Shown: positions 15,282-52,722 of the stretch, in pieces | How positions within the stretch are numbered: the first letter of the stretch is position 1 | How the letters are laid out: each line of letters begins with the position of its first letter | Origin: Candidatus Moraniibacteriota bacterium | GTDB taxonomy: Bacteria; Patescibacteriota; Minisyncoccia; Moranbacterales; UBA1568 | Assembly: GCA_018499985.2 (NCBI GenBank) | Contig: JAHBAT020000003.1 | Span: forward strand, 5,622 to 69,621 | Direction: 5' to 3' | Length of the DNA: 64,000 nucleotides | Position numbers and translations under genes: made by a program | Notes under the pieces: generated by a model | What the model saw: only the letters and a program-made list of their open reading frames with translations | Told to the model about the DNA's origin: nothing | Databases searched by the model: none

Positions 15282-15415
15282 ATCCGGCACCACACTGAAT
15301 TCTATGCATGACTAAGAGTCTGTAGCTCAGCTGGTTAGAGCGCTACATTGACATTGTAGAGGTCCCCAGTTCGAATCTGGGCAGACTCACAAATGTTTTC
15401 AGTGTGGTGCTGGAT
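15282..15415. repeat. 18-bp inverted repeat enclosing tRNA-Val(GAC)
   Basis: ATCCGGCACCACACTGAA (15282-15299) versus TTCAGTGTGGTGCTGGAT (15398-15415); one G-U pair. Confidence 0.85.
15316..15389 (+). tRNA. tRNA-Val(GAC)
   Basis: Cloverleaf: GAGTCTG/CAGACTC acceptor, CTACA-TTGACAT-TGTAG anticodon arm, TTCGAAT T-loop. Confidence 0.95.
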
Positions 15416-15470
15416 AGAAGTCTCCTCTTTTTGATTAGAAACTTACTCAGTTTTACTCAGCGGATAGATA

Positions 15471-15496
15471 AAAAGACTCCCTTTTGGGAGTCTTTT
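15471..15496. terminator. Bidirectional intrinsic terminator
   Basis: AAAAGACTCCC-TTTT-GGGAGTCTTTT. Confidence 0.8.
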
Positions 15497-15501
15497 ACAT
15501 T

Positions 15502-16572
15502 TTAAGTTGGGGGAAGTGAATATTTATATGGAGGTGGTGAAGGCGTACCGCCTGTAGTCGTATTAACCTGGTTTAGTCTATCATTTACTATTCCTGCAGC
15601 TGGACCCACTACAGACTGCACCTTATTGATTTCACCGCTGATTTGACGATCAACATTGATAATCTCTCTTCGGATTTTATTTTGAATATCTCCTACACCC
15701 TTTTGTACCAAGTTTGATACCGTACGATTAACCACTGATACCACGACTCCGGAAAGGAACTCTCCTGGATTATCAGCGCCCACAATTATCTTATTACCCA
15801 AAGTAGTAACATCATTCACAAGACTCTCGATAGAGCCTGCTGGAGTAATGATATTACCATCCTTATCAGTGCCCGGTAAGAATCCAGAAGACTGTGCTTT
15901 AATCTCTTGTTCTCTGAGCGTCCTTTCGTATTCTGCATTATATGTACCCTCTGCAAGCAAAGCTATACCTATAGGATTATTGGCGCTGTTATTAAAAAGA
16001 CATCCGATTGCCTTTGTGCCAGCATTACCGGCTTGAATAGCTAGCCTTGGATCATTACCACCAGTACTACACTCTGCAAAATTATTTGCTTGAACATTTT
16101 TACGAGCAGCGACAGTATCTCGAACAATTTTCTCTAAGTAAGCATCATAACTCCCTCCTTTGTTTAGACCACTCACTTCACCATTGGCAACGTAGTTAGC
16201 ACTTGCCCCCTTTCCGCGGAGTGTTTGTGTCAAAAGATCCCCCACTACTGCCTGCTCTGCATTTTGCTCTGCTGTTTTAGTGAGGAGCTCACGAAAATCT
16301 GTAATAATTTTTGGCTGAGAACCATCCCCTCCTACAAATTGCATCACCTGAGTATTGAGAAGTTGCACAGCGGCTACTTTTAAAGTTCCAAGCAATGCAC
16401 CTTCAATGGTACGTGAGATATTTTCCATAGTCTGCTTCATAATAGAAGCAGCGATAGCTTCACCCCAAGCTCCAGCATGAACAGGTGTAGCCGGAAGAGC
16501 AAAGAGCCCTAAAGCTAAAACTAGTACTACCTGTGTTCGTAAAAATTTTTCTTTTACTTTTTTCAGTATCAT
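15502..16572 (-). CDS. Hypothetical secreted helical protein
   Basis: Signal peptide ending PVHA; 356 aa. Confidence 0.75.
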   Translation of the reverse strand: MILKKVKEKFLRTQVVLVLALGLFALPATPVHAGAWGEAIAASIMKQTMENISRTIEGALLGTLKVAAVQLLNTQVMQFVGGDGSQPKIITDFRELLTKTAEQNAEQAVVGDLLTQTLRGKGASANYVANGEVSGLNKGGSYDAYLEKIVRDTVAARKNVQANNFAECSTGGNDPRLAIQAGNAGTKAIGCLFNNSANNPIGIALLAEGTYNAEYERTLREQEIKAQSSGFLPGTDKDGNIITPAGSIESLVNDVTTLGNKIIVGADNPGEFLSGVVVSVVNRTVSNLVQKGVGDIQNKIRREIINVDRQISGEINKVQSVVGPAAGIVNDRLNQVNTTTGGTPSPPPYKYSLPPT

Positions 16573-16575
16573 AGA

Positions 16576-17553
16576 CTAAAGTTCAAGAGGAATAGTATCT
16601 ATTTCATATTTTTTGAGAGCGCCTTGTACATCATCCACAAACTGAGCCGTAACACCCAAAAGAGCCTGCATACGAGAAAGCGCCGCTATCTGCCCAATCG
16701 GATCATCTCCATCTGTTTTGATATCTTTCTTAAGCGAAGCTGCGTACAATCCCATCTTGAGTGCTTTTACATGAATATCAAGCATGGCCTCTGGCACTTC
16801 TACTTTTTTACTTTCATCCAGTATTTTTTGCCCTCTTTCTGCCAAAGCATTTGTAGCTTCCACATTACCATTTGCGAGTCCAAGGATCGCCTGACTTGAA
16901 AGACTATTCATTACTCCCCCAAACTGATCCTCTGTATTAAATTGTGAAGGAGAGTTATTAGCTACAATATATGACATCACTGTAAGGTACTCCAAAACAT
17001 CTTTTTTTTCTTGAGACTTTCTTTCTTTTTCTTTCAAGTTTTTTGAAGGTGCTTTTTTAATTTTAATCTCCTTCATATCAACCTCTGGAAGAATAACCTC
17101 TGTATTGTTACCACTCATAGCCTGTTCAACAGCACTATTGATTTGATCAAAAGTTACCTCTTTATTGTCATCTGTAACACCAGAAAGAACTCCTGCTATT
17201 TGAACAGAGACTTTGTTTGTAAGATTATCTTCCGGTGCACTTGATACACTCTCTTTCGCCTTATCTTCAATCTTTACTATTCTATCTCCAGGAGCCGGAA
17301 CCAAAGGATTGTAACCACTTTCGATTTCTACACCATCTGAATATCCGTCTCCATCTGTATCTGCCTTGTTGGCATCAGTACCGTAGAGCTTTTCTTCCTG
17401 AAGAGAAAGATTATCCTGATCAGCATCTACAAAAATATTTTTACCACTTGTTTGAGATTCTCCACGGACAGCATAAAAAGTACACCCGAAAAAGAGAACT
17501 AGAAACAAAAGAAAAGTTTTTCGCTCTTTAAATAAAGAAAATATAAATGACAT
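16576..17553 (-). CDS. Membrane-anchored protein with TSP3-like Ca-binding DxDxDG repeats
   Basis: DADQDNLS..EE..YGTD...ADTDGDGYSDGVEI..GYNP; start trimmed to ATG 17553. Confidence 0.75.
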   Translation of the reverse strand: MSFIFSLFKERKTFLLFLVLFFGCTFYAVRGESQTSGKNIFVDADQDNLSLQEEKLYGTDANKADTDGDGYSDGVEIESGYNPLVPAPGDRIVKIEDKAKESVSSAPEDNLTNKVSVQIAGVLSGVTDDNKEVTFDQINSAVEQAMSGNNTEVILPEVDMKEIKIKKAPSKNLKEKERKSQEKKDVLEYLTVMSYIVANNSPSQFNTEDQFGGVMNSLSSQAILGLANGNVEATNALAERGQKILDESKKVEVPEAMLDIHVKALKMGLYAASLKKDIKTDGDDPIGQIAALSRMQALLGVTAQFVDDVQGALKKYEIDTIPLEL

Positions 17554-17647
17554 ATTTTTTGTTTTTTCTATTATATCACTCGTAGCTACATCTTTCAAAA
17601 TATTTTCTCTACCCGCAATATTACCAATATTTATTATGCAATATAAA

Positions 17648-18997
17648 TTATTTATTGTCAAGTACTAATGTATTCACACTTCCCAAGGCTAAGAAGATCC
17701 AAAAAAGGAAAATTCCCTGCGGAAGAGTAAAGAAATAATGATCTCCTAAAGCCAGGATTAGGATAAATACTATCATCAACTGTGATCCACATCTCTGTTT
17801 CACGTGAAACATTTTTTTTGAAGAGGAGAAGAGTACACCTAAAAAAAGATACGTGTAGACAAGAAGCCCAAAAATACCCAACTCCCCCAAAACTATCAGA
17901 AGGCCGCTATGGACAGGTTGCATGACCCATGGATTCATTGAGGCTTTTAAAGATAGCTCTTGGTAGAAATAACTTGTTCCGATACCATTTCCAAAAAATG
18001 TCACTGCGTTTGTCTTGGCATATTCAATAAGGGAAAATTCTCTTTCATTAAAACTTTTTTGATTCAAAAAAATAATTATTCCAAAAATAACTATGGCCAG
18101 AATCAGATGTTTCACGTGAAACATATTTCTGTATTTCTCTTTTGTTTCACGTGAAACACTAAGTAAATAAAGGATTCCCCCTAAAATTAGGGCCACTTTT
18201 GAAAATGTTAGAAATAAAGCGATGCTTATGAAAAAGATTCCTAATTGTTTCACGTGAAACATACTAGTAAGTCTACTCCATTTTGTTTCACGTGAAACAA
18301 AAAAGTCTCTGAAAAGAAATGCCATTGTTAAAGTAAGCAATAGAAAAGCCGCCAAAACATTTGGATGAGGAAAAAGACCATAAGCTCGCAGTATTTTATC
18401 ACCAAAAAAGTTTATTGTAGCAATATTTTGAGATCCAATCTGCAAATGACTTTCACCCAAAAAATATAAATACACATCTCTCTGGGCAAAAAATTGCAAA
18501 ATCGCAATAAAAGCATTAAATAGGGCCGAAATATACAGACTCTCTAAAAATAACTGGAAATAATTAGTAAATTTCCATGTTTCACGTGAAACAATCTTAT
18601 TTTCTTGTTTCACGTGAAACAAGAAAAGAGTGATTATTCCATAATAAAGAATAATTGCTTCAAAATAAAAAAGAGTATGCCTAAGAGAAAGGGTTTTATC
18701 AGGAGAAAAAATAATTGAGAGTAGACTCAAAATCAAAACAGTTAGGGGAGCAAGTATCTGTATTCTGTTTTGTTTCACGTGAAACATTTCCCGTATACTT
18801 GACAATAGTATACTTTCATTGTATATTATTATGAAAAGTATGACGAGGAATGCTATATCGAATGCGTAGATCGATATATCTAAATATTCACTATAAAAAA
18901 GGCTTCCGAGAACATTCGGGATCAAAACATACTGCACATTCAAGAGAAAGCTTATCCCTAAGAAAATCAGGCTGATTTTTTTGAAAAAAATACTCAC
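17648..18997 (-). CDS. O-antigen ligase (Wzy_C)-family polytopic membrane protein containing eight parS sites
   Basis: LRAYGLFPHPNVLAAF, LFLTFSK, FFGNGIG, QPVHSGLLIVLGELGIFG, GDHYF; repeated MFHVKQ and VSRET peptides. Confidence 0.85.
   Translation of the reverse strand: MSIFFKKISLIFLGISFLLNVQYVLIPNVLGSLFYSEYLDISIYAFDIAFLVILFIIIYNESILLSSIREMFHVKQNRIQILAPLTVLILSLLSIIFSPDKTLSLRHTLFYFEAIILYYGIITLFLFHVKQENKIVSRETWKFTNYFQLFLESLYISALFNAFIAILQFFAQRDVYLYFLGESHLQIGSQNIATINFFGDKILRAYGLFPHPNVLAAFLLLTLTMAFLFRDFFVSRETKWSRLTSMFHVKQLGIFFISIALFLTFSKVALILGGILYLLSVSRETKEKYRNMFHVKHLILAIVIFGIIIFLNQKSFNEREFSLIEYAKTNAVTFFGNGIGTSYFYQELSLKASMNPWVMQPVHSGLLIVLGELGIFGLLVYTYLFLGVLFSSSKKMFHVKQRCGSQLMIVFILILALGDHYFFTLPQGIFLFWIFLALGSVNTLVLDNK
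17796..18786. promoter_or_regulatory. parS: parS cluster: 8 perfect TGTTTCACGTGAAACA palindromes
   Basis: Sites start at 17796, 18108, 18143, 18246, 18284, 18578, 18606 and 18771; exact match to the widely conserved ParB/Spo0J-binding consensus; ~21 kb from oriC. Confidence 0.93.
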
Positions 18998-19102
18998 AGG
19001 TGTATAGTTATTAGCTTAATCTTACGCTTATCAAAGGCCAAAAACAAGCATTGACTAAAAAAGTATATTACCGGATAATAAGGTGTACCAAATTATAGAA
19101 GA

Positions 19103-19175
19103 GGGCCTTTAGCTCATCTGGTAGAGCGCTCCCATGGCATGGGAGAGGTGAGCGGTTCGAGTCCGCTAAGGTCCA
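19103..19175 (+). tRNA. tRNA-Ala(GGC)
   Basis: GGGCCTT/AAGGTCC acceptor with G3:U70; CTCCC-ATGGCAT-GGGAG. Confidence 0.95.
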
Positions 19176-19232
19176 CACTGATTGTGTATACGTCTGTATA
19201 AGTATATATTTTTCTTTATTAGAGCCATAAAT

Positions 19233-19304
19233 GCCTCCATAGCTCAATGGATAGAGCTGCTCCGTCCTAAGGAGAAAATCTGGGTTCGATTCCTGGTGGG
19301 GGCA
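19233..19304 (+). tRNA. tRNA-Arg(CCT)
   Basis: GCCTCCA/TGGGGGC acceptor; CTCC-GTCCTAA-GGAG; TTCGATT T-loop. Confidence 0.9.
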
Positions 19305-21276: not shown

Positions 21277-21357
21277 TACCGAGGGTGGGACTCGAACCCA
21301 CACGGCTTGCGCCTGGGGATTTTAAGTCCCCTATGTCTACCATTCCATCACCCCGGC
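21277..21357 (-). tRNA. tRNA-Leu(TAA)
   Basis: GGGGA-CTTAAAA-TCCCC anticodon arm with a long variable arm. Confidence 0.95.
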
Positions 21358-21382
21358 ATATTTCTATTATACATCTTTACTG

Positions 21383-21453
21383 AGGTCGCGTCCGGACTTG
21401 AACCGGAGTAAAGGGTTTTGCAGACCCGTGCCTAACCGCTCGGCCACGCGACC
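21383..21453 (-). tRNA. tRNA-Cys(GCA)
   Basis: GGTCGCG/CGCGACC acceptor, U73, GGGT-CTGCAAA-ACCC. Confidence 0.95.
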
Positions 21454-21466
21454 ATCTAACGCTGTT

Positions 21467-21543
21467 ATTTTGCAGATTTACCAGCCTCTGGCTGGCCTCT
21501 GCCACCGCCAGAGGCGGTCAAGTAACCACTCGGCCATCGGACC
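21467..21543 (-). pseudogene. Degenerate 5' part of a second tRNA-Cys interrupted by two short hairpins
   Basis: GGTCCGATGGCCGAGTGGTTA...[ACCGCCTCTGGCGGT][CCAGCCAGAGGCTGG]...ATCTGCAAAA; no T-arm. Confidence 0.6.
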
Positions 21544-21635
21544 AAACTTCACTATCACTTAAAAAGGGTACCAAATAGGGGGGTGCGAGTCAATAAACAA
21601 AACTCCACTCAAGATAGAGTGGAGTTCTTTTTTTA

Positions 21636-22184
21636 TTATTGTATTACCTTAGCACTCAGATTCTGACGTCCAAAAGCAAAGGCCTGACTTTTTGTTTTTA
21701 CATAAATATCAAAGTGATTACCCTTGATAGCTCCACCACGGTCCTCACAACGATACTCTCCCATTCCTTCGATACTAATCTTGGTACCAAAAGGAAATTC
21801 TCTCGGACAAGCAAGGGTACGCTTTTCGGTCACCATAAGACCTGAAGCGGTCATCCCATCGCTTTTACCACATTCATCAGCCGCTGCAGTATAAGCAGAA
21901 GCATTGATAGTAAAAGATTCGGTAGGAAGACTTGCCCAAAGGCTTGCCTGCTTAGTTTTCCATTTGAGAAGGATCTTATCTTCAATTGATAGCTCTTTTT
22001 GTTCAATCTGAGTATCAATTTGTTTATTCTTGAGGCTCCACTCGAGAAGATATGGGTCCTGAGAATAGTTATAACTCTGTATAAGTGGTAATTCTACGTT
22101 TTCAGCAGCCACTGTACCGATATTGGTAACAAATAGGCCGATTCCGAGTACTGCTACGAAAAGAAGCTCTTTTCGATAAGACAT
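21636..22184 (-). CDS. 3D-domain cell-wall protein (MltA/Sps-like) with a signal peptide
   Basis: NASAYT, TASG, LACP..FPFGTKI, EDRGGAIKGNHFDIY. Confidence 0.9.
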   Translation of the reverse strand: MSYRKELLFVAVLGIGLFVTNIGTVAAENVELPLIQSYNYSQDPYLLEWSLKNKQIDTQIEQKELSIEDKILLKWKTKQASLWASLPTESFTINASAYTAAADECGKSDGMTASGLMVTEKRTLACPREFPFGTKISIEGMGEYRCEDRGGAIKGNHFDIYVKTKSQAFAFGRQNLSAKVIQ

Positions 22185-22360
22185 AAATTGCTCTTACTGG
22201 TAATCCGCACATCCCTTGGGACTGACGGGCTGAGTAGGTCTGTACTTATCTCAACCCGGTATACTAGCATATTTCACAATTTTTGTCAATAGAAAATAGG
22301 GAATAATTAGCTTATATAAAGCAAAAAGTACCTTATAAAAAGGTACTTTTTAGTGCTTTT

Positions 22361-22580
22361 GAGCGGATAAGGGGACGAACTGCTCCCATTCGACAAGCTC
22401 ATGGTCCGCTCTATAGGGTTTCCACCCTCTAGCCCCTTTGGATTACCCCAATCTGGGAAACAAGTGTTTTTCCTGTCTCGCTCTGGCTTGCCAAGGCGGG
22501 CCGACCCTTTTCCCGTTCGATTCCCTCTACTTACCCAGAAAAAGCAAAAGACCCGGAGAATTCCGAGTCTTTTGGTTTAT
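22361..22580. repeat. tRNA-Gly-derived repeat region with a REP-like hairpin
   Basis: Direct copy of the tRNA 3' end at 22361-22380, CCAT-TCGACAAGCTC-ATGG hairpin, inverted anticodon and T-arm fragments, terminator hairpin near 22546-22572. Confidence 0.6.
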
Positions 22581-22583
22581 GTG

Positions 22584-22655
22584 AGCGGATAAGGGGAATC
22601 GAACCCCTATCTCATCCTTGGCAAGGACGTGTAATAACCATTATACGATATCCGC
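22584..22655 (-). tRNA. tRNA-Gly(GCC)
   Basis: GCGGATA/TATCCGC acceptor, U73, TCC-TTGCCAA-GGA. Confidence 0.95.
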
Positions 22656-22728
22656 TTATCTCTCTTTTCTAAATAACGACTTTCCTAGAATAAATATTTC
22701 TGTTTTACCTGTCAATCTAGCCTTATTG

Positions 22729-22802
22729 TGGGACTGGCTGGACTTGAACCAGCGACCAAGCGGTTATGAGCCGCCTGCTCTAACCAACTGAGCTACAGTC
22801 CC
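22729..22802 (-). tRNA. tRNA with CAT anticodon, probably tRNA-Ile2 (TilS substrate)
   Basis: GGGACTG/CAGTCCC acceptor, GGCGG-CTCATAA-CCGCT; no initiator C1 mismatch; Ile2 versus elongator Met is inference. Confidence 0.85.
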
Positions 22803-22872
22803 TAATTTTTGCTTATAAACAGTGTATAACTTTCTATAAGCACACTTATACAGCCTTTATCCACCTCTACTG

Positions 22873-22944
<72 letters not shown>

Positions 22945-22962
22945 TGAACTATCACACTTCTG

Positions 22963-23036
22963 TGCACGCTCAAGGACTCGAACCTTGGACCCCCTCGGTG
23001 TAAACGAGGTGCTCTAACCAACTGAGCTAAGCGTGC
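22963..23036 (-). tRNA. tRNA-Val(TAC)
   Basis: GCACGCT/AGCGTGC acceptor, CCTCG-TTTACAC-CGAGG. Confidence 0.95.
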
Positions 23037-23054
23037 TTATTGTATTCAATTGTG

Positions 23055-23138
23055 TGCCCAAGAGAGGACTTGAACCTCCACTCCCTTGCGAGAACATGCA
23101 CCTCAAGCATGCGCGTATACCAATTCCGCCACCTGGGC
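23055..23138 (-). tRNA. tRNA-Leu(GAG)
   Basis: GCCCAGG/CTTGGGC acceptor, CATGC-TTGAGGT-GCATG, long variable arm. Confidence 0.95.
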
Positions 23139-45205: not shown

Positions 45206-46189
45206 CTACAATAAAGGAAAGAGGTGCTTAAGGAGAATCAAAGAGACATCGATGCCGTCGCCCTCAACAAGTGGTTTTTCGTGCATATTGTAGTAGGGGT
45301 TGGGATTGACCTCAAGAATAACATAGGGAGTGTTTGGAGAGGCAAGATCATTGGTAATAAGGTCTAGCCCACCATAGGTAAGCCCAAGGGATTCAACAGC
45401 TTTGACGCAGGTCTTTTTGAGCTCGTTACTCATACTTGCGGTGCGTTCAATACAACGCCCACCATCAGACATATTGAGGTTGTTACGTAATTTAAAGAAA
45501 AAGTCTTTTGGCAGAACTGTCTTTAGGGTGTATCCAGCTTTGGCAAGGGTTTCTTTTGCTACAGCGTCAAGTTTTATTTCAAAACCATGGCGCCGAGTCT
45601 TATTGAAAGAGTGAATAAGGTCTTGAATAGTGTGTAGACCATCGCCCACAATGCCAGCAGGTATTTTTTCTACACAAGAAAGTACCTCGCCATTAAAAAC
45701 AAGGACTCGGTATTCATTCCCGATAAACATTTCTTCAACAAGAATTTTGATATCTTCCCGGTACCCGTAGGCGCCAAGAGCGTGATTAATGGCTTCTTCT
45801 AAACCATCCTCAGAGAGGATGTTCCAGGTTACTCCTTTAGCAAGAGATCCATCGACAGGCTTGCTAATAAGCGGATAAGTGAGTTTTTTTTCTCTTACTT
45901 CGCGAAGACCATCTTCAAAAGAATGTGTGACCACGCCTTTTGGGGTGCGAATACCAACAGATTCAAGAACAAATTTGGTAATAGATTTATTTTTAGTAAG
46001 ATTGCACATGCTTCGAAAAAGAGGTACCTTTCCATAGCAAAAAATAGTTTTGCCTTTATGGGTTATTTTTACGATAGGCACTTTTTCGTGCTGGATAAGT
46101 TCGGCATGAAGTCCAAGAGAGAGGGTTTTTTTGAGAAAAGACTTATAAGCACCATGTTTTACTTTATCGATATACTGTTCAATATTCAT
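45206..46189 (-). CDS. ATP-grasp ligase (cyanophycin synthetase/GshF-like domain)
   Basis: KPVDGSLAKGV, VEEMFIGNEYRVLV, GDG..TI..LI, NMSDGG, GLDLI, LEVNPNP; start trimmed to ATG 46189. Confidence 0.82.
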   Translation of the reverse strand: MNIEQYIDKVKHGAYKSFLKKTLSLGLHAELIQHEKVPIVKITHKGKTIFCYGKVPLFRSMCNLTKNKSITKFVLESVGIRTPKGVVTHSFEDGLREVREKKLTYPLISKPVDGSLAKGVTWNILSEDGLEEAINHALGAYGYREDIKILVEEMFIGNEYRVLVFNGEVLSCVEKIPAGIVGDGLHTIQDLIHSFNKTRRHGFEIKLDAVAKETLAKAGYTLKTVLPKDFFFKLRNNLNMSDGGRCIERTASMSNELKKTCVKAVESLGLTYGGLDLITNDLASPNTPYVILEVNPNPYYNMHEKPLVEGDGIDVSLILLKHLFPLL

Positions 46190-46235
46190 TATGATTTTTT
46201 GAAAAAAAGAAAAAGGGCAATTTTTTGAGAGAGAT

Positions 46236-47630
46236 CTATTTTGAAACGTCAACAAGGAATTTGAGAAGATTTTTTCTCCCAATAATAGATTTATAATCAA
46301 GACGAGAGCGATCAATAAGGGTCGGCCGAATAGGGGTGCGAGTACCATCAAGGAGCATTTCTAGCTGAATCTTTACTCGGTATGTGGTGCCGTGTGAAGA
46401 ATGGATTGGTACAGTACTGACAGCATCAGGAATGTTCTCAAAGAGCTCCCAGCGCTCTTCTTTAGTAAGGTTTTTGAGTTTCTCCCAGTCAGCTTGAAGG
46501 GCTCGATATGCGCGTACCGTCTCTCCGAAACCAAGTGCTTCAGCTACCTCAAAATCAATAGATGATGAATCGGCCCCAGTATCTATCTTGGCTTCAAGAG
46601 TAATTTCTTTGTTATCTTTACCAAAAAAAGTTACCTTTTCAATTACACCAATCATTTTTTTACCAGAGATTTCTTCAATTTCATCTTCAATTTCTCCTCC
46701 AAAAAGATTCATGCCAACACGAATACCGCGATCGGTTGTTTTGATTTTGATACCTTTGACACGATCAAGTCGCTCACGAAGACCCGAGAGATTGGCGAGC
46801 TGGATAGAGAGTCCTGGTCGAGCATTGAGTTCAATAATGACTGGACCACGCTCACGATCAAGGGCGATGTCTGCTCCAAGAAAACCGAGACCAGAAATTT
46901 TCTGGGCCTCGACAGCAATACGAAGAGTCTCCTTCCAGTAGGGAAGCTTGATACCAGAAAGCACAAGGTTGGTATCTGGTACGTATTCGATAATATTACC
47001 TTTGCCCATAATAGCGCTTGTGGTAGTGCCAGTAGCGAGGTCGATACCTACCCCGATAGCACCTTGCTGGAGATTGGCCTTGCCATCAGATGCACGCGTA
47101 GGGAGGCGTAGCATGGCCATTACAGGCACTGAGTTAAAGACAATAACGCGAATATCAGGGATACCTTTGTAGCTGTAGGGCTTAAAAAGTTTCAGAAGGG
47201 TAAGACGCTCTTCAAAAAAGGCGGTATCAGGAAGATTACTCAATGAAAAAGAGCCATCGAGAATATTTTTAATATGAATTTTGAGATCTTCTATAGTAAT
47301 GAGTGAACCATCGGCCTTTACCCAGGCATCATCGCGGCCTCGCTTGCGTGCATAGACAACAAGGATACCGCCTCCACCAAATCCACGATTAGGTTTGAGG
47401 GCAAATCCGCCAGGGAGCGTTGACCAATCAAAGGCGTCTAGTTCCTCATAGTTTTTTATTTTACCAAGCAATTTTGGTACGGAGAGATTTTGTTTGCGAA
47501 GAATGCGCTTGCAAAGGAGTTTGTCATCCGCAATACGCATGGCCTTTTTACGGTTGAGTGGACGCACGTAATCAAGGTTACGCGCATTCATACCAAGAAG
47601 CTTTTGACTTTTGAGAAAGAGTTCAAACAT
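46236..47630 (-). CDS. Alpha-L-glutamate ligase-like ATP-grasp fused to a RimK-associated aspartyl-type protease domain
   Basis: LGMNARN, DDKL, KPNRGFGGGGI, GIPDIRV, AMLRLPT..SDGKANL.QGA, IELNARPGL.IQ; C-terminal IGVIEKV...AKIDTGADSSSID...IIGR. Confidence 0.85.
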   Translation of the reverse strand: MFELFLKSQKLLGMNARNLDYVRPLNRKKAMRIADDKLLCKRILRKQNLSVPKLLGKIKNYEELDAFDWSTLPGGFALKPNRGFGGGGILVVYARKRGRDDAWVKADGSLITIEDLKIHIKNILDGSFSLSNLPDTAFFEERLTLLKLFKPYSYKGIPDIRVIVFNSVPVMAMLRLPTRASDGKANLQQGAIGVGIDLATGTTTSAIMGKGNIIEYVPDTNLVLSGIKLPYWKETLRIAVEAQKISGLGFLGADIALDRERGPVIIELNARPGLSIQLANLSGLRERLDRVKGIKIKTTDRGIRVGMNLFGGEIEDEIEEISGKKMIGVIEKVTFFGKDNKEITLEAKIDTGADSSSIDFEVAEALGFGETVRAYRALQADWEKLKNLTKEERWELFENIPDAVSTVPIHSSHGTTYRVKIQLEMLLDGTRTPIRPTLIDRSRLDYKSIIGRKNLLKFLVDVSK

Positions 47631-47642
47631 ATATGGACAGAA

Positions 47643-48299
47643 CTACAGGTGGGCAATAACCTTGCGGAAACGGATGTATTCCGTAATGCGGAGACCAGAC
47701 CATTTACCAAGAGTAAAGTTGATAATAAAGGTCAAAAGAATCAGCCATGGATGATTGAGAATAAGAATCATAAAGCCATCCCAGCGGATAAGGGAGTATC
47801 CAATGAGAGAAATCAGGAGGGTTTCGCCGGCAAGAAAAGTAGCTGCGCGACTACCTTTTTCAATTTGGGTGGCCACAAACTTTTCAGCCAAGGTAATCAT
47901 GATAAGAAGAGGAAAGATAGAGACAGAAGCAAGGCCAGTACGCTTAAAGTGTGCTCCAATGACAAGAATAAGAAGAATGGCCAGAGCGACAATGGAAATA
48001 GTGATAGCCACGCGTGGAAGATAGAGAAGGCGGAAGCGACGAAGCATGTAGCGAGAAGCCATTCCGACAAGAATAATACTTATAAAAATAGCAATACCAT
48101 ACTTCAAGCCATTTGGATCGAAAGCTAAAAGAGCAAAGGTAATAATAGAGGGCGTGTAAATACCAAAGGCTTTAATTCCAACAACCTGACGAAAAAAAGC
48201 AACAAGCGTGGCTACGACCGGAATCATCAAAAGAAGAGCAAGTGTCTGAAGTGGCACGCCCTGCTCTACTATGTACATAACGAGAGGATGGTAGTTCAT
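47643..48299 (-). CDS. 7TM protein (7TM_transglut-like)
   Basis: LLMIPVVAT..AFFRQVVGIKAFGIYTP, LLYLPR, IFPLLIM...AEKF, GKWSGLRITE..RF. Confidence 0.85.
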   Translation of the reverse strand: MNYHPLVMYIVEQGVPLQTLALLLMIPVVATLVAFFRQVVGIKAFGIYTPSIITFALLAFDPNGLKYGIAIFISIILVGMASRYMLRRFRLLYLPRVAITISIVALAILLILVIGAHFKRTGLASVSIFPLLIMITLAEKFVATQIEKGSRAATFLAGETLLISLIGYSLIRWDGFMILILNHPWLILLTFIINFTLGKWSGLRITEYIRFRKVIAHL

Positions 48300-49624: not shown

Positions 49625-50638
49625 CTAGCCAAGAAGTTTTTCTGCCTGCTCATCTGGCATAGGAATACCGAGGTGATCGTAGCCTTCTTTGGTCACTATA
49701 CGGCCACGCGGAGTACGTGTAAGAAATCCTATTTGAATAAGATACGGTTCGTAGACATCTTCAATGGTTTGGAGCTCTTCTCCGGTTACCGCTGCTAAAG
49801 ATTGAATACCAGCGGGTCCACCTTTGAATTTTTTGATAAGAGTCTCAAGCATCAATCTGTCAGTGGGCTCAAGACCAAGATGATCAATTTCGTAGAGCGC
49901 AAGAGCCTCTTTGGCAAGATCAGCTGTAATAATCTCATTGTCATGAATCTGGGCAAAATCACGCACACGTTTTAGGATACGATTGGCAACACGAGGAGTC
50001 TGTCTACTAGAAAGCGCAATTACTCGCGCACCGCCTTCGTCGGTCTCTATACCAAGGATACGGGCTGAGCGACTGACAATTTTTTCGATATCTTGGCTAT
50101 TGTAAAATTCGAGACGATGGGTAGAGCCAAAGCGGTTGCGTAGAGGGTTCGAAAGTGAGCCAAGGCGAGTAGTAGCTCCAATAAGAGTAAAGTGCGGAAG
50201 ATCAAGTTGGATGGTGCGAGCAGCAGGCCCTTTGCCGATGATGATATCAAGCTTGTAGTCTTCCATCGCCGGATAGAGAACTTCCTCGATGAGTTTGTTG
50301 AGACGATGAATTTCATCGATAAAGAGGACGTCGCCATCTTCAAGGTTGGTGAGAATCGAACCTAGATCACCGACTTTTTCGATGGCTGGCCCAGAAGTTA
50401 CTTTGATATTCACACCCATTTCTTTGGCAATGATATGAGCGAGGGTAGTTTTACCAAGACCAGCGGACCCATAGAGGAGAACGTGGTCAATATTTTCACC
50501 GCGCTTCTTGGCTGCCTGGATAAAGATACCTAGATTTTTTTTGATTTTATCTTGACCAATATATTCAGAAAAACTCTGAGGACGAAGGGTATTATCGAGA
50601 CTTTGCTCTTCAAATTCTTGAGGCGCGGTGGTGAGCAT
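49625..50638 (-). CDS. ruvB: Holliday junction DNA helicase RuvB
   Basis: [40 protein letters not shown]...RTPRGR; start trimmed to ATG 50638. Confidence 0.97.
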
Positions 50639-50703
50639 AGGGGTATTTGGAGGCTTAAATAAAAGAAAAATATACAAAATCAGTAAATATAGTATATCAG
50701 GAC

Positions 50704-50732
50704 TTGACAGGAATTCCAAACTCTGCTAATAT
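50704..50732 (+). promoter_or_regulatory. Sigma70-type promoter TTGACA-17-TAATAT with extended -10 TG
   Basis: Direct sequence match; points into an interval with no ORF. Confidence 0.8.
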
Positions 50733-50738
50733 ACTCCT

Positions 50739-50967
50739 TCAACTTGAAAAAGGTTGAAGATATTCAAAAACGTTCCTTTTTATCTGTAGGCAATTTGGGA
50801 ACTTCTATCTTTTGTTCTCAAAATCGGGACTTGTTGCCAAGATCTGGGTAGGGGGGTTTCGGCTCTGCTATTCCTCGACACCTGTCCTTTCTTCGGGCTC
50901 CTATGCTTGAGGATTTGTCTGCAGTTTAAAATGAAGGTTACAAAAACTCCTCTTACGAGGAGTTTTT
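50739..50967 (+). ncRNA. Candidate multi-stem ncRNA of unknown family
   Basis: Bracketed by a promoter and a terminator; closing stem 50784-93/50915-24 encloses three arms with many G-U pairs valid only on the + strand. Confidence 0.6.
50942..50967. terminator. Bidirectional intrinsic terminator
   Basis: AAAAACTCCTC-TTAC-GAGGAGTTTTT. Confidence 0.85.
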
Positions 50968-50970
50968 ATT

Positions 50971-52722
50971 TTATTCTTTAGAGGACGCTTCCTTAAAAGA
51001 AGGATCACTGAGGATGTCTTCGTAGAGATCTTCTAGAGCTTCATCTCTACCGGTAGTGCGCCAGACCTCTTGGAACGTAGTAATACCTTCAACTACTTTG
51101 AGGATACCATCCTGATTCATAGTGAGCATGCCTTCTTTGATGGCTGCTTCACGAATTTCATTCTCAGTAGCAAAGTTGTCAATAATTTTGGCAATACCAT
51201 CTGTCACAGGAAAGATCTCGAAGATTCCTTGGCGACCACGATACCCAGAAAAGTGACATTCAGCACAACCGACTGGCTTGTAGAGGGTTTCTATAGTTTT
51301 TGGTACATGAATACCTGTATTAAGAGGAATAGTAGCAAGAATTTTTTGAAGGGCGGCTATGGTTTTTGGCGCAGGAGTGTAAGCCTCACGACATTTTTTA
51401 CAAAGAACACGAACAAGACGTTGGCCAATAAAAATATTGACAGCACTTCCAATAAGAGAACCTTTGATACCAAGCTCACCGAGACGTACGATGGAGGCTG
51501 GAGCATCATTGGTGTGAAGGGTAGTGAACACGAGGTGTCCTGTAAGTGCTGCGTTTACTGCTACTTCAGCCGTTTCTTCATCTCGTATTTCTCCCACAAG
51601 AATAACATCAGGATCCTGACGGACAATAGCGCGTAGGGCTTGGCCAAAACCATATGAGTCGTCATTGTTTACAGCGGTCTGCACAACCCCAGGAAGAATG
51701 TATTCGATAGGATCTTCCACGGTAATAATTTTGACTGAAGACTCATTAATCTCACGAATCAAGCTGTAGAGCGTGGTAGTTTTACCGGAGCCTGTTGGCC
51801 CGGTATTCACAATCATACCGTGAGGTTTTTTGATTTGACGCTTAATTTCGAGAAGAGCTTCGCCTCGAAGACCCAGCGTTTCAAGTGGTACATCTGCTTC
51901 AGAACTATTAAGAAGACGCATGTTGATGGTCTCACCCTGGTTGGTAGGGATGATGCTGACACGGATATCGATACGCTCATCATCTTTCATAATAAAAAAG
52001 CTACCATCTTGAGCCCTGGCAGTGGCATTGAGCTTCATCTTGGCAAGCATTTTTACACGAGAAAGAGTAAGGTGATAGACATCTGATGGGATATGAGCGA
52101 TGTCTTCTAAGAGTCCATCGATACGGTAACGTAGGCGGACTTCGCCAGCCTCCGGTTCGATATGTATATCACTGGTATGAAGATGGTTGGCTCCAGCCAA
52201 AATAATCTCGAGCACCTTGGTAGTCGGAAGATTAGCAAGATTATTTTTAAGCGAAAGAAGGTCATCAAACTCTTTACCAAAAGTGGCAAGGTCTTCCTTT
52301 GAAAGACTCACCTTCATTTGATCAAGGTGTTCGATGAAGGGTTTTTTAGTATACTCTTCCCAAGCGCGTTCTAGAGAAGCGCTTGATATAAGATAGAATT
52401 TTATTTCTTGCTCACGCTCTTTGGCATAGGTGAGGAGTTTTTCTTTGATGGAGGCATCGGTTTGAGTTAGTCCGATACGGTAGATGCCGCGCTCTTTTTG
52501 AAAAAGGACAGAGAGGGTTTCTCTGGCAAGGTCTTCCGGAAACGAGCGGACATGATCTCCATCAACCGGAAAAAGAGAGAGGTCGATATAAGGGAGGCCT
52601 TGAGAGTGAGCGAGACGCTCGACCTCGCTTTCGCGAGAAGAAATATCGATTTTTTGCAAAAAATCACCGACACCTTCTTTTGTGCTATCAGCGGATTCTG
52701 ATTGTCTAACTACTTTGACCAT
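50971..52722 (-). CDS. GspE/PilB family type IV pilus assembly ATPase
   Basis: SDIHIEP, AQDG, TGPTGSGKTTTLY, TVEDPIEY, RQDPDVILVGEIRD, LTGHLV.TTLHTND, CxxC pairs. Confidence 0.93.
   Translation of the reverse strand: MVKVVRQSESADSTKEGVGDFLQKIDISSRESEVERLAHSQGLPYIDLSLFPVDGDHVRSFPEDLARETLSVLFQKERGIYRIGLTQTDASIKEKLLTYAKEREQEIKFYLISSASLERAWEEYTKKPFIEHLDQMKVSLSKEDLATFGKEFDDLLSLKNNLANLPTTKVLEIILAGANHLHTSDIHIEPEAGEVRLRYRIDGLLEDIAHIPSDVYHLTLSRVKMLAKMKLNATARAQDGSFFIMKDDERIDIRVSIIPTNQGETINMRLLNSSEADVPLETLGLRGEALLEIKRQIKKPHGMIVNTGPTGSGKTTTLYSLIREINESSVKIITVEDPIEYILPGVVQTAVNNDDSYGFGQALRAIVRQDPDVILVGEIRDEETAEVAVNAALTGHLVFTTLHTNDAPASIVRLGELGIKGSLIGSAVNIFIGQRLVRVLCKKCREAYTPAPKTIAALQKILATIPLNTGIHVPKTIETLYKPVGCAECHFSGYRGRQGIFEIFPVTDGIAKIIDNFATENEIREAAIKEGMLTMNQDGILKVVEGITTFQEVWRTTGRDEALEDLYEDILSDPSFKEASSKE

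Follow-up and report, generated by a model that had tools for sequence, protein, structure and literature searches.

Does the gap between ruvB and a pilB-type ATPase gene in a small patescibacterial genome hold a gene of its own, and if so, of what kind? The question is raised by positions 50704-50967 of a 64,000-nucleotide (nt) stretch of Candidatus Moraniibacteriota DNA (assembly GCA_018499985.2, contig JAHBAT020000003.1; the whole stretch is called the window below), in which a first-pass annotation had recognized a promoter pointing away from ruvB, a multi-branched RNA and a terminator. We show that the window carries, at approximately 50739-50970 on the + strand, a gene for a separately transcribed, structured non-coding RNA, and we put the probability that the gene is real and represents a new RNA family at about 0.95.

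A structured RNA gene between ruvB and pilB

The near-consensus promoter proposed for the RNA (TTGACA-17-TAATAT) is borne out by a promoter scan, which found matches at 10 of 12 consensus positions together with a TG extended -10. Fifteen perfect TTGACA-N14-TGnTAnnnT sites occur genome-wide, and this is the sole one without an open reading frame (ORF) of at least 70 amino acids (aa) within 300 nt. Of 41 loci of the window's order (Moranbacterales), 39 have a perfect TTGACA-17-TAnnnT ahead of the RNA; an alignment of the order anchored on the -35 gives the consensus TTGACAAAaaAa.AAAG.taTGCTA..aT, and distant members of the family are preceded by the same type of promoter. The ~230 nt that follow were described as free of ORFs and as ending at a strong terminator, and both statements hold: the longest + strand ORFs between promoter and terminator encode 35 and 32 aa, and 26 of the 41 loci have a terminator 3′ of the RNA by our own rule for calling one. 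In the window the - strand folds into the same hairpin, of 13 bp; with an A run on one side and a T run on the other, this terminator can end transcription of both the RNA (+) and pilB (-). A small-protein gene is one of four minor readings to which we give, taken together, a very small chance, the others being a riboswitch or leader, a relic of a miniature inverted-repeat transposable element (MITE) and a Y-RNA-like partner of a Ro protein; it is at odds with ORFs that do not exceed 35 aa and with 1-nt insertions and deletions between close relatives.

The + strand of 50730-50970 has a predicted minimum free energy (MFE) of -85.1 kcal/mol (z = -7.35), a value equalled by none of 200 shuffles, as compared with -53.3 kcal/mol (z = -2.22) for the - strand of the same region. 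The core of the structure is a four-way junction formed by helices P1 to P4 (50784-50924; Table 1). The 5′ hairpin and the four helical elements that had been drawn by eye are all reproduced in the MFE structure, with P4 extended to the boundaries given in Table 1, and the structure also contains an outer closing helix that was not among the elements of the earlier fold. In P3, the base helix of that fold (GGGAC/GUCCU) stands, GGGUAG pairs in relatives with CUAU(A)CC, with one bulged base, rather than with CUAUUC, and the pairing UGUUG/CGACA is unsupported, showing no covariation. In a second order, that of family f39, the homologous helix is shifted by 3 nt along the 3′ strand and does covary (GC 25, AU 4 and GU 2 of 31), and in the window's own order 2-3 pairs form in either register. 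About ten G-U pairs had been counted by eye as an argument for a + strand RNA; the richness in such pairs is confirmed and the count is not, since the MFE structure has 14, of which 13 lie in the core. The strand assignment itself is upheld by these pairs, by the two z values and by the covariation described below. Since only the two closest relatives (L010 and L011) keep the 5′ leader hairpin, it does not belong to the conserved family core. The long closing helix that follows this short leader consists of the outer helix and P1.

Table 1. Features of the RNA locus, by position in the window
Feature	Position	Strand	Detail and basis
RuvB gene	49625-50641	-	Pfam
ruvB promoter-like site	50691-50719	-	-35 TTGGAA 50719-50714, -10 TATACT 50696-50691; 9/12 matches, TG present
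RNA promoter	50704-50732	+	-35 TTGACA 50704-50709, 17-nt spacer, TG 50724-50725, -10 TAATAT 50727-50732
5′ leader hairpin	50737-50759	+	CUUCAACUU...AGGUUGAAG; MFE
Outer closing helix	50769-50780 with 50928-50939	+	MFE; covariation
P1, 5′ strand	50784-50793	+	CUGUAGGCAA; pairs with 50915-50924; MFE and covariation
P2 hairpin	50794-50822	+	Loop UUCUAUCUUUU at 50803-50813
P3 arm	50826-50888	+	Base GGGAC 50826-50830 with GUCCU 50884-50888
P3 internal loop	50837-50845	+	CCAAGAUCU; opposite UCGA 50875-50878
P3 distal stems	50846-50857 with 50862-50874	+	UUCG tip 50858-50861
P4 hairpin	50890-50913	+	UCUUCGGGC/GCUUGAGGA; loop UCCUAU 50899-50904
P1, 3′ strand	50915-50924	+	UUGUCUGCAG; MFE and covariation
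Intrinsic terminator	50942-50967		11-bp stem and T run (+ strand scan); A run 5′ of hairpin
T2SSE/PilB-type ATPase gene	50971-52722	-	Pfam

Comparison of relatives supports this structure. In a BLAST search with a 236-nt query, 46 of the 61 genomes searched in the genus and order gave a match, and a profile search recovered full-length copies in all 44 loci fetched. From an alignment of 39 sequences of the order (A1), RNAalifold recovered the outer helix, P1, P2, the distal P3 stems and P4; 95.9% of the cells in consensus pairs are paired, versus 41-47% when the partners are slid by 1-3 columns, and both sides have changed in 26 of 39 pairs, the observed values being reached by none of 500 shuffles. 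Changes on both sides are found in all six pairs of the outer helix (helix 1), in 3 of 8 pairs of P1 (helix 2), which is paired in 100% of cells, in 5 of 6 pairs of the main stem of P2 (helices 3 and 4), in 5 of 11 pairs of P3 (helix 5; 98.1% paired) and in all six pairs of P4 (helix 6; 84.9% paired). The base helix of P3, which the aligner had lost, covaries by inspection (GGGAC/GUCCU, GGGAGC/GCUCUC, GGUGUC/GACGCU). Several pairs are G-U in most of the A1 sequences (for example in 36, 34, 38 and 36 of the 39), and therefore the RNA is read from the + strand.

Within the order, all 39 sequences share CUAUCUUU in the loop of P2, the A and G of the CCAAGAU loop and the segment CCUCG, and two U residues directly 3′ of the P1 5′ strand are nearly invariant. 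Outside the order the sequence of the P2 loop differs, and in the second order the RNA takes a rod form of ~125 nt that lacks P2 and P4 and keeps P1, the internal loop and CCUCGAC. The P1 sequence CUGUAGRC/GYCUACAG is common to both orders and to families f21, f51, f55, f57, f63, f74, f80 and f82. At the tip of P3, the UUCG is replaced by an extra hairpin of ~70-100 nt in two loci (L048:2423-2691 and L049:2338-2579), and a third (L040) has an insertion of ~17 nt at the base of the arm; because L048 and L049 tolerate insertions of this size at the tip, the UUCG is not a functional loop. The family core comprises the inner closing helix CUGUAGRC/GYCUACAG, an elongated P3 with a large asymmetric internal loop (YYMAGAU opposite CCUCGR) and a pyrimidine-rich 3′ strand, P2 and P4 being lineage-specific side arms and the P3 tip freely variable. 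Two finer structural proposals were rejected. A K-turn or tandem G.A arrangement of the internal loop is contradicted by sequences in which the A after CCUCG is a G (in part of the sequences) or the A of AGAU is a U (in ~8 of 32 rod-form sequences), and a pseudoknot between the P2 loop and the internal loop (AUCU with AGAU) is unsupported, as changes in the partner are not compensated in the loop, which is invariant, and P2 is missing from the rod form.

The pyrimidine-rich character of the loops raises the alternative of a trans-acting, base-pairing small RNA (sRNA), which would contact purine-rich mRNA regions resembling Shine-Dalgarno sequences by way of its P2 loop (CUAUCUUUU), its P4 loop (CUCCU) or, in the rod form, the junction strands CUUUU/CUUCUC. 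The invariance of the P2 loop across the order, the pyrimidine-rich single strands kept by the rod form, and the layout as a stand-alone gene with a Rho-independent terminator are all consistent with such a role. However, the P2 loop is not kept outside the order, the rod form does without P2 and P4 altogether, and what is constant in the family is a helix and an internal loop rather than a seed; moreover, exact complements of the loops occur in the genome at about the number expected by chance and at no telling location. An elaborate covarying architecture is also unusual for sRNAs of the seed type, and we consider this reading quite unlikely.

Comparison with known RNA classes

The first-pass annotation had proposed either a structured RNA of a class not yet described or a housekeeping RNA that has diverged strongly. 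The RNA matches none of 4227 Rfam families, and the proposed novelty stands. At the gathering score, Rfam 15 finds only tRNAs in the window and nothing on the RNA; at E <= 10, the 451-nt region 50600-51050 gives terminator-driven noise only (Phe_leader, rnk_pseudo and the like); five rod-form loci have no match; and 20 diverse members have no match that overlaps the RNA (for 6S RNA, none at E <= 1). A detached piece of rRNA was considered and rejected, as no rRNA model matches the 451-nt region. The searchable text of the literature on non-coding RNAs of Patescibacteria, the candidate phyla radiation (CPR) and Parcubacteria, supplementary files lying outside the search, describes no RNA beside ruvB, and term look-ups in the accessible text of a 2026 language-model preprint and of Weinberg et al. 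2017 did not find the RNA. Measured against Rfam and the searchable literature, then, this is a new class of RNA.

The genome (892 kb, 98.6% complete) encodes other housekeeping RNAs elsewhere. RNase P RNA lies at C3:70-498 (-), where RF00010 matches over its full length at 71 bits versus a gathering cut-off of 100 bits, suggesting that the RNase P RNA of the lineage is diverged; tmRNA lies at C6:24339-24741 (-) and 5S rRNA at C8:18452-18558. 6S RNA and the RNA of the signal recognition particle (SRP) were not found in the genome. The earlier statement that the RNA lacks known motifs of RNase P RNA, tmRNA, 5S rRNA and SRP RNA is consistent with these separate copies and, for SRP RNA, with the lack of a match and of the proteins Ffh and FtsY. 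Together with the covariation and the lack of an Rfam match, the location of the other housekeeping RNAs elsewhere supports the two descriptions with which the annotation had ended. As a separate observation, positions 308-316 of the tmRNA carry, in an AU-rich stretch, a 9-mer identical to the P2 loop (CUAUCUUUU), which is probably a coincidence.

A highly diverged SRP (4.5S) RNA would account for the rod-like core, whose distal half has an asymmetric internal loop with more residues on its 5′ side, and for the failure of RF00169 and RF01854 to match anywhere in the genome and of RF00169 to match in any of 61 relatives. The RNA itself has no score with either model, however, and it lacks the GNAR tetraloop and the symmetric loop of SRP RNA; its apical UUCG is dispensable and tolerates insertions of 70-100 nt, and the positions that would have to form the symmetric loop are a covarying Watson-Crick helix. 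The protein partners point the same way. The genome contains no SRP54-type GTPase (PF00448), no ORF bearing DTAGR, which we take to be an SRP GTPase motif, and no Ffh M domain (SRP_SPB, PF02978), and a search for SRP54 in the 61 relatives gave weak matches only, almost all of which stay within the P-loop end of the profile. The absence of the Ffh M domain extends to all 151 genomes searched in a phylum sample, in line with Nelson and Stegen 2015, who report that neither ffh nor ffs is detected in Parcubacteria (PMC4508563), and Moreira et al. 2021 likewise report two SRP subunits as absent in many CPR (PMC8080830). Because the genome lacks Ffh and FtsY, an SRP RNA is very unlikely, and we regard this reading as all but refuted.

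A highly diverged 6S-type RNA is the leading alternative, itself unlikely in our analysis. Such an RNA would bind the sigma-70 holoenzyme as a mimic of an open promoter; its bubble would be the loosely paired region from P1 to the distal P3, with P2 and P4 as hairpins formed by the bubble strands, and synthesis of a product RNA would start at the UU that directly follows the P1 5′ strand and use that strand, read backwards, as template. The role appears vacant in that RF00013 finds no 6S RNA in the genome, and the near-invariant UU stands at the place at which the product would start. As in 6S RNA, the gene is single-copy, stand-alone and strongly promoted, and its transcript of ~170-230 nt has ends paired in a long closing stem and an elongated, interrupted, rod-like core; in the rod form, two internal loops split by short, weak helices lie between P1 and the distal stems. 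On the other hand, the silence of RF00013 is weak evidence, since the model matched only 5 of 14 control genomes, and the RNA itself obtains no 6S score either in the 451-nt region at E <= 10 or in the 20 diverse members at E <= 1. The sequence of its closing helix is kept across orders, and strong sequence conservation of a helix is, to our knowledge, not a trait of 6S RNA. The hallmark of the class, as generally known and as given in the accessible part of PMC8876501, is a rod whose large central bubble is unpaired on both strands and lies between helical arms, whereas the RNA described here has a four-way junction or, in its rod form, small asymmetric loops of ~10 by 5 and 9 by 4 nt.

Y RNAs and YrlA have a long terminal stem with a sequence-conserved helix, pyrimidine-rich internal loops and variable modules, and the long conserved stem and pyrimidine-rich loops of the RNA recall them. 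The genome has no match to the TROVE/Ro protein (PF05731), which argues against a Y RNA; the neighbors are RuvB and PilB, no Rfam Y RNA or YrlA family matches, and there is no tRNA-like module. In the descriptions accessible to us, supplemented by general knowledge, the orphan RNAs raiA/ModT, OLE, ROOL and GOLLD resemble the RNA in being lineage-restricted, conserved and covarying and in having been found before their function. It differs from them in its smaller size (a core of ~125-170 nt), in its unrelated sequence and fold, and in its occurrence, within our searches, in Patescibacteria only.

Distribution and linkage to ruvB

The search of Patescibacteria genomes that had been recommended, with attention to the region upstream of ruvB, bears out the family by both covariance searching and covariation. 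With a covariance model (R1), 143 of the order's 151 genomes, covering 74 of 76 genera, have a match to the RNA, nearly all of them a single one. The long inverted repeats resemble the ends of a MITE, a reading that is at odds with one copy per genome. Two genomes of the order have tandem pairs, with copies ~200 nt or less apart (G164:C19:22609-23153 and G158:C99:80-394). In the order of f39, R1 finds the rod form in 32 of 41 genomes, and in the phylum sample it is limited to 7 of 151 genomes, solely of the window's order and of f39. A wider model (R2), built on a further alignment (A5), raises the phylum sample to 23 of 151 genomes, with members in families f1, f4, f13-f15, f21, f39 (6 of 6), f40, f51, f55 (three genomes), f57, f63 (two), f74, f80 and f82.

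In a collection of species genomes, a pattern made of the constant parts matched at least 120 stretches, and R1 confirmed 64 of the 80 listed; chance matches to the pattern in the whole collection are estimated at ~130. Among the matches listed, the confirmed copies carry the labels Moranbacteria or Moraniibacteriota, Yanofskybacteria, Azambacteria, Andersenbacteria, Parcubacteria, Paceibacterota, Minisyncoccota and Patescibacteria group, as well as 'bacterium' or 'uncultured bacterium' and TPA_asm uncultured Saccharibacteria or Bdellovibrionales, and the top R1 scorers, which fall in the score range of the order, mostly have Moranbacteria labels. The 16 unconfirmed matches among those listed include Streptomyces, Bacteroidaceae and one 'uncultured bacterium', and no member outside Patescibacteria is confirmed among the matches listed. 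High-scoring copies also occur in records of metagenome-assembled genomes labeled 'TPA_asm: uncultured Bdellovibrionales' and 'uncultured Candidatus Saccharibacteria' (L152, L154, L158, L160, L161, L165 and others); these labels are probably wrong or coarse.

Linkage to ruvB is the rule in the order. RuvB on the opposite strand is the upstream ORF in 39 of 45 loci, three of the other six having no upstream ORF in the fetched stretch, which ends at or near the end of the contig; PilB is convergent downstream in 32 of 45. The rod form is divergent from ruvB in all five f39 loci. A conserved block directly upstream of the -35 of the RNA (AtT.TA.CAc, + strand consensus) corresponds to an extended -10 when read along the strand of ruvB, and the estimated start of ruvB lies no more than 81 nt from the -35 of the RNA in 21 of 37 loci, 56-81 nt in 19 of them. 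In the window, the site at 50691-50719 (-) may be the corresponding ruvB promoter. RNA polymerase bound at one of two such overlapping, back-to-back promoters would exclude polymerase from the other, which would explain why the RNA and ruvB stay together. In other families, a strong divergent promoter is present in 11 of 60 regions upstream of ruvB, accompanied in 9 of the 11 by a structured region with z < -3 (relative to mononucleotide shuffles); run without filters on the ruvB-upstream regions, R1 gives seven matches at E < 0.01, and the motif CUGUAG...CUACAG is present in 7 of the 60, two of these (L099 and L102) probably by chance.

These arrangements suggest another alternative, that the locus acts in cis on ruvB, by divergent transcription (occlusion or supercoiling coupling) or as an antisense to the ruvB leader, with the RNA product secondary. 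The divergent orientation, the short distance between the two genes, and the overlap of two promoters that are conserved at the nucleotide level would all follow from such a role. A promoter effect, however, needs no covarying structure of 140-170 nt with invariant loops, and in the window the transcripts of the RNA and ruvB do not overlap, their starts diverging, by promoter geometry, at ~50740 and ~50684. Furthermore, the RNA occurs away from ruvB. In three genomes of f55, it is on contigs other than that of ruvB; in G206, it adjoins pilB, and RuvB was not found at E <= 1e-40. In f51, f57, f63 (G312) and f82, 0.8-2 kb separate the RNA from ruvB. A cis role for ruvB is improbable in our estimation. 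Because the RNA also occurs away from ruvB (f55 and G206), it probably acts in trans. R1 gave no match in five genomes that themselves lack a RuvB match, a result that carries no weight because the model also misses the majority of the distant members. A riboswitch or other leader would lie in the 5′ untranslated region of a gene on the same strand; in the window the next gene is convergent and the terminator follows directly after the RNA, and just 4 of the order's 45 loci have a downstream ORF on the same strand.

A probably trans-acting RNA and its possible partner

By its distribution, the RNA looks like a housekeeping gene: it is present in 143 of 151 genomes of the order, in nearly single copy, in 32 of 41 genomes of the second order, and, by the wider model, in 23 of the 151 genomes sampled from the phylum. 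That such a gene should be dispensable is very unlikely given a genome of ~0.9 Mb, a top-ranking promoter, a covarying fold of 140-170 nt, invariant loops and conservation across orders. Invariant unpaired bases and an invariant helix, standing beside covarying helices and a tolerant tip, form the usual pattern of a macromolecular recognition surface. Our preferred reading is that the RNA is abundant and probably acts in trans, either as part of a ribonucleoprotein (RNP) or as a regulator that sequesters a protein, and that the partner protein would recognize the internal loop, the junction and the inner closing helix with its invariant sequence. The closing helix of 20-30 bp would hold the two ends of the RNA in place and may be a stalk for processing by an enzyme such as RNase III, which the genome encodes. 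We give this protein-binding mechanism somewhat less than an even chance. It is possible, though with somewhat longer odds, that the RNA is a subunit or regulator of a housekeeping machine specific to Patescibacteria, which have lost the SRP and in which no 6S RNA is recognizable, such as a non-canonical binder of RNA polymerase that does the job of 6S RNA, or the scaffold of an unknown RNP; the CUGUAGRC/GYCUACAG helix and the YYMAGAU/CCUCGR loop would then be the recognition surface.

Several observations weigh against the preferred reading, beginning with expression. No run on record as RNA contains the stretch. One library labeled metatranscriptomic has a single 227-nt contig that corresponds to 50777-50940 with seven differences and continues into the terminator of a relative, weakly hinting at a discrete, abundant transcript; the same library has nothing on ruvB or pilB and is rated 'probably DNA'. 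None of the genes linked to the locus is for an RNA-binding protein; the neighbors are RuvB, PilB, bPH, RuvC, TsaE and ATP-grasp proteins, and neighboring ORFs of 84 and 379 aa belong to no Pfam family. A helix that is Watson-Crick paired throughout offers a protein little for sequence-specific recognition, and the invariance of P1 could stem from alternative pairing or RNA-RNA targeting instead, just as the pyrimidine-rich loops (CUAUCUUUU and CUCCU) also suit a base-pairing sRNA. The RNA may be absent from the 128 of 151 phylum-sample genomes without an R2 match, or too diverged there for the models, so that the family is perhaps not universal, and the exclusion of one promoter by the other is inferred from geometry.

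Much of bacterial diversity belongs to the Patescibacteria (CPR), whose tiny genomes have lost supposedly universal parts, SRP included. Identification of a partner for the RNA would reveal either a new RNP or the way in which these cells make up for the lack of a regulator such as 6S RNA. The existence of a four-way and a rod form of one core makes the RNA a compact target for structural work, and it may also serve as a marker gene for these lineages.

Elsewhere, the window contains ten tRNA genes, seven of them clustered on the - strand; the regions concerned are 21277-23138 (-) and 15316-19304 (+). At 45206-48299 (-), adjoining ruvC, lie genes for two ATP-grasp proteins, one of them fused to a Zn_protease domain, and for a 7TM_transglut protein.

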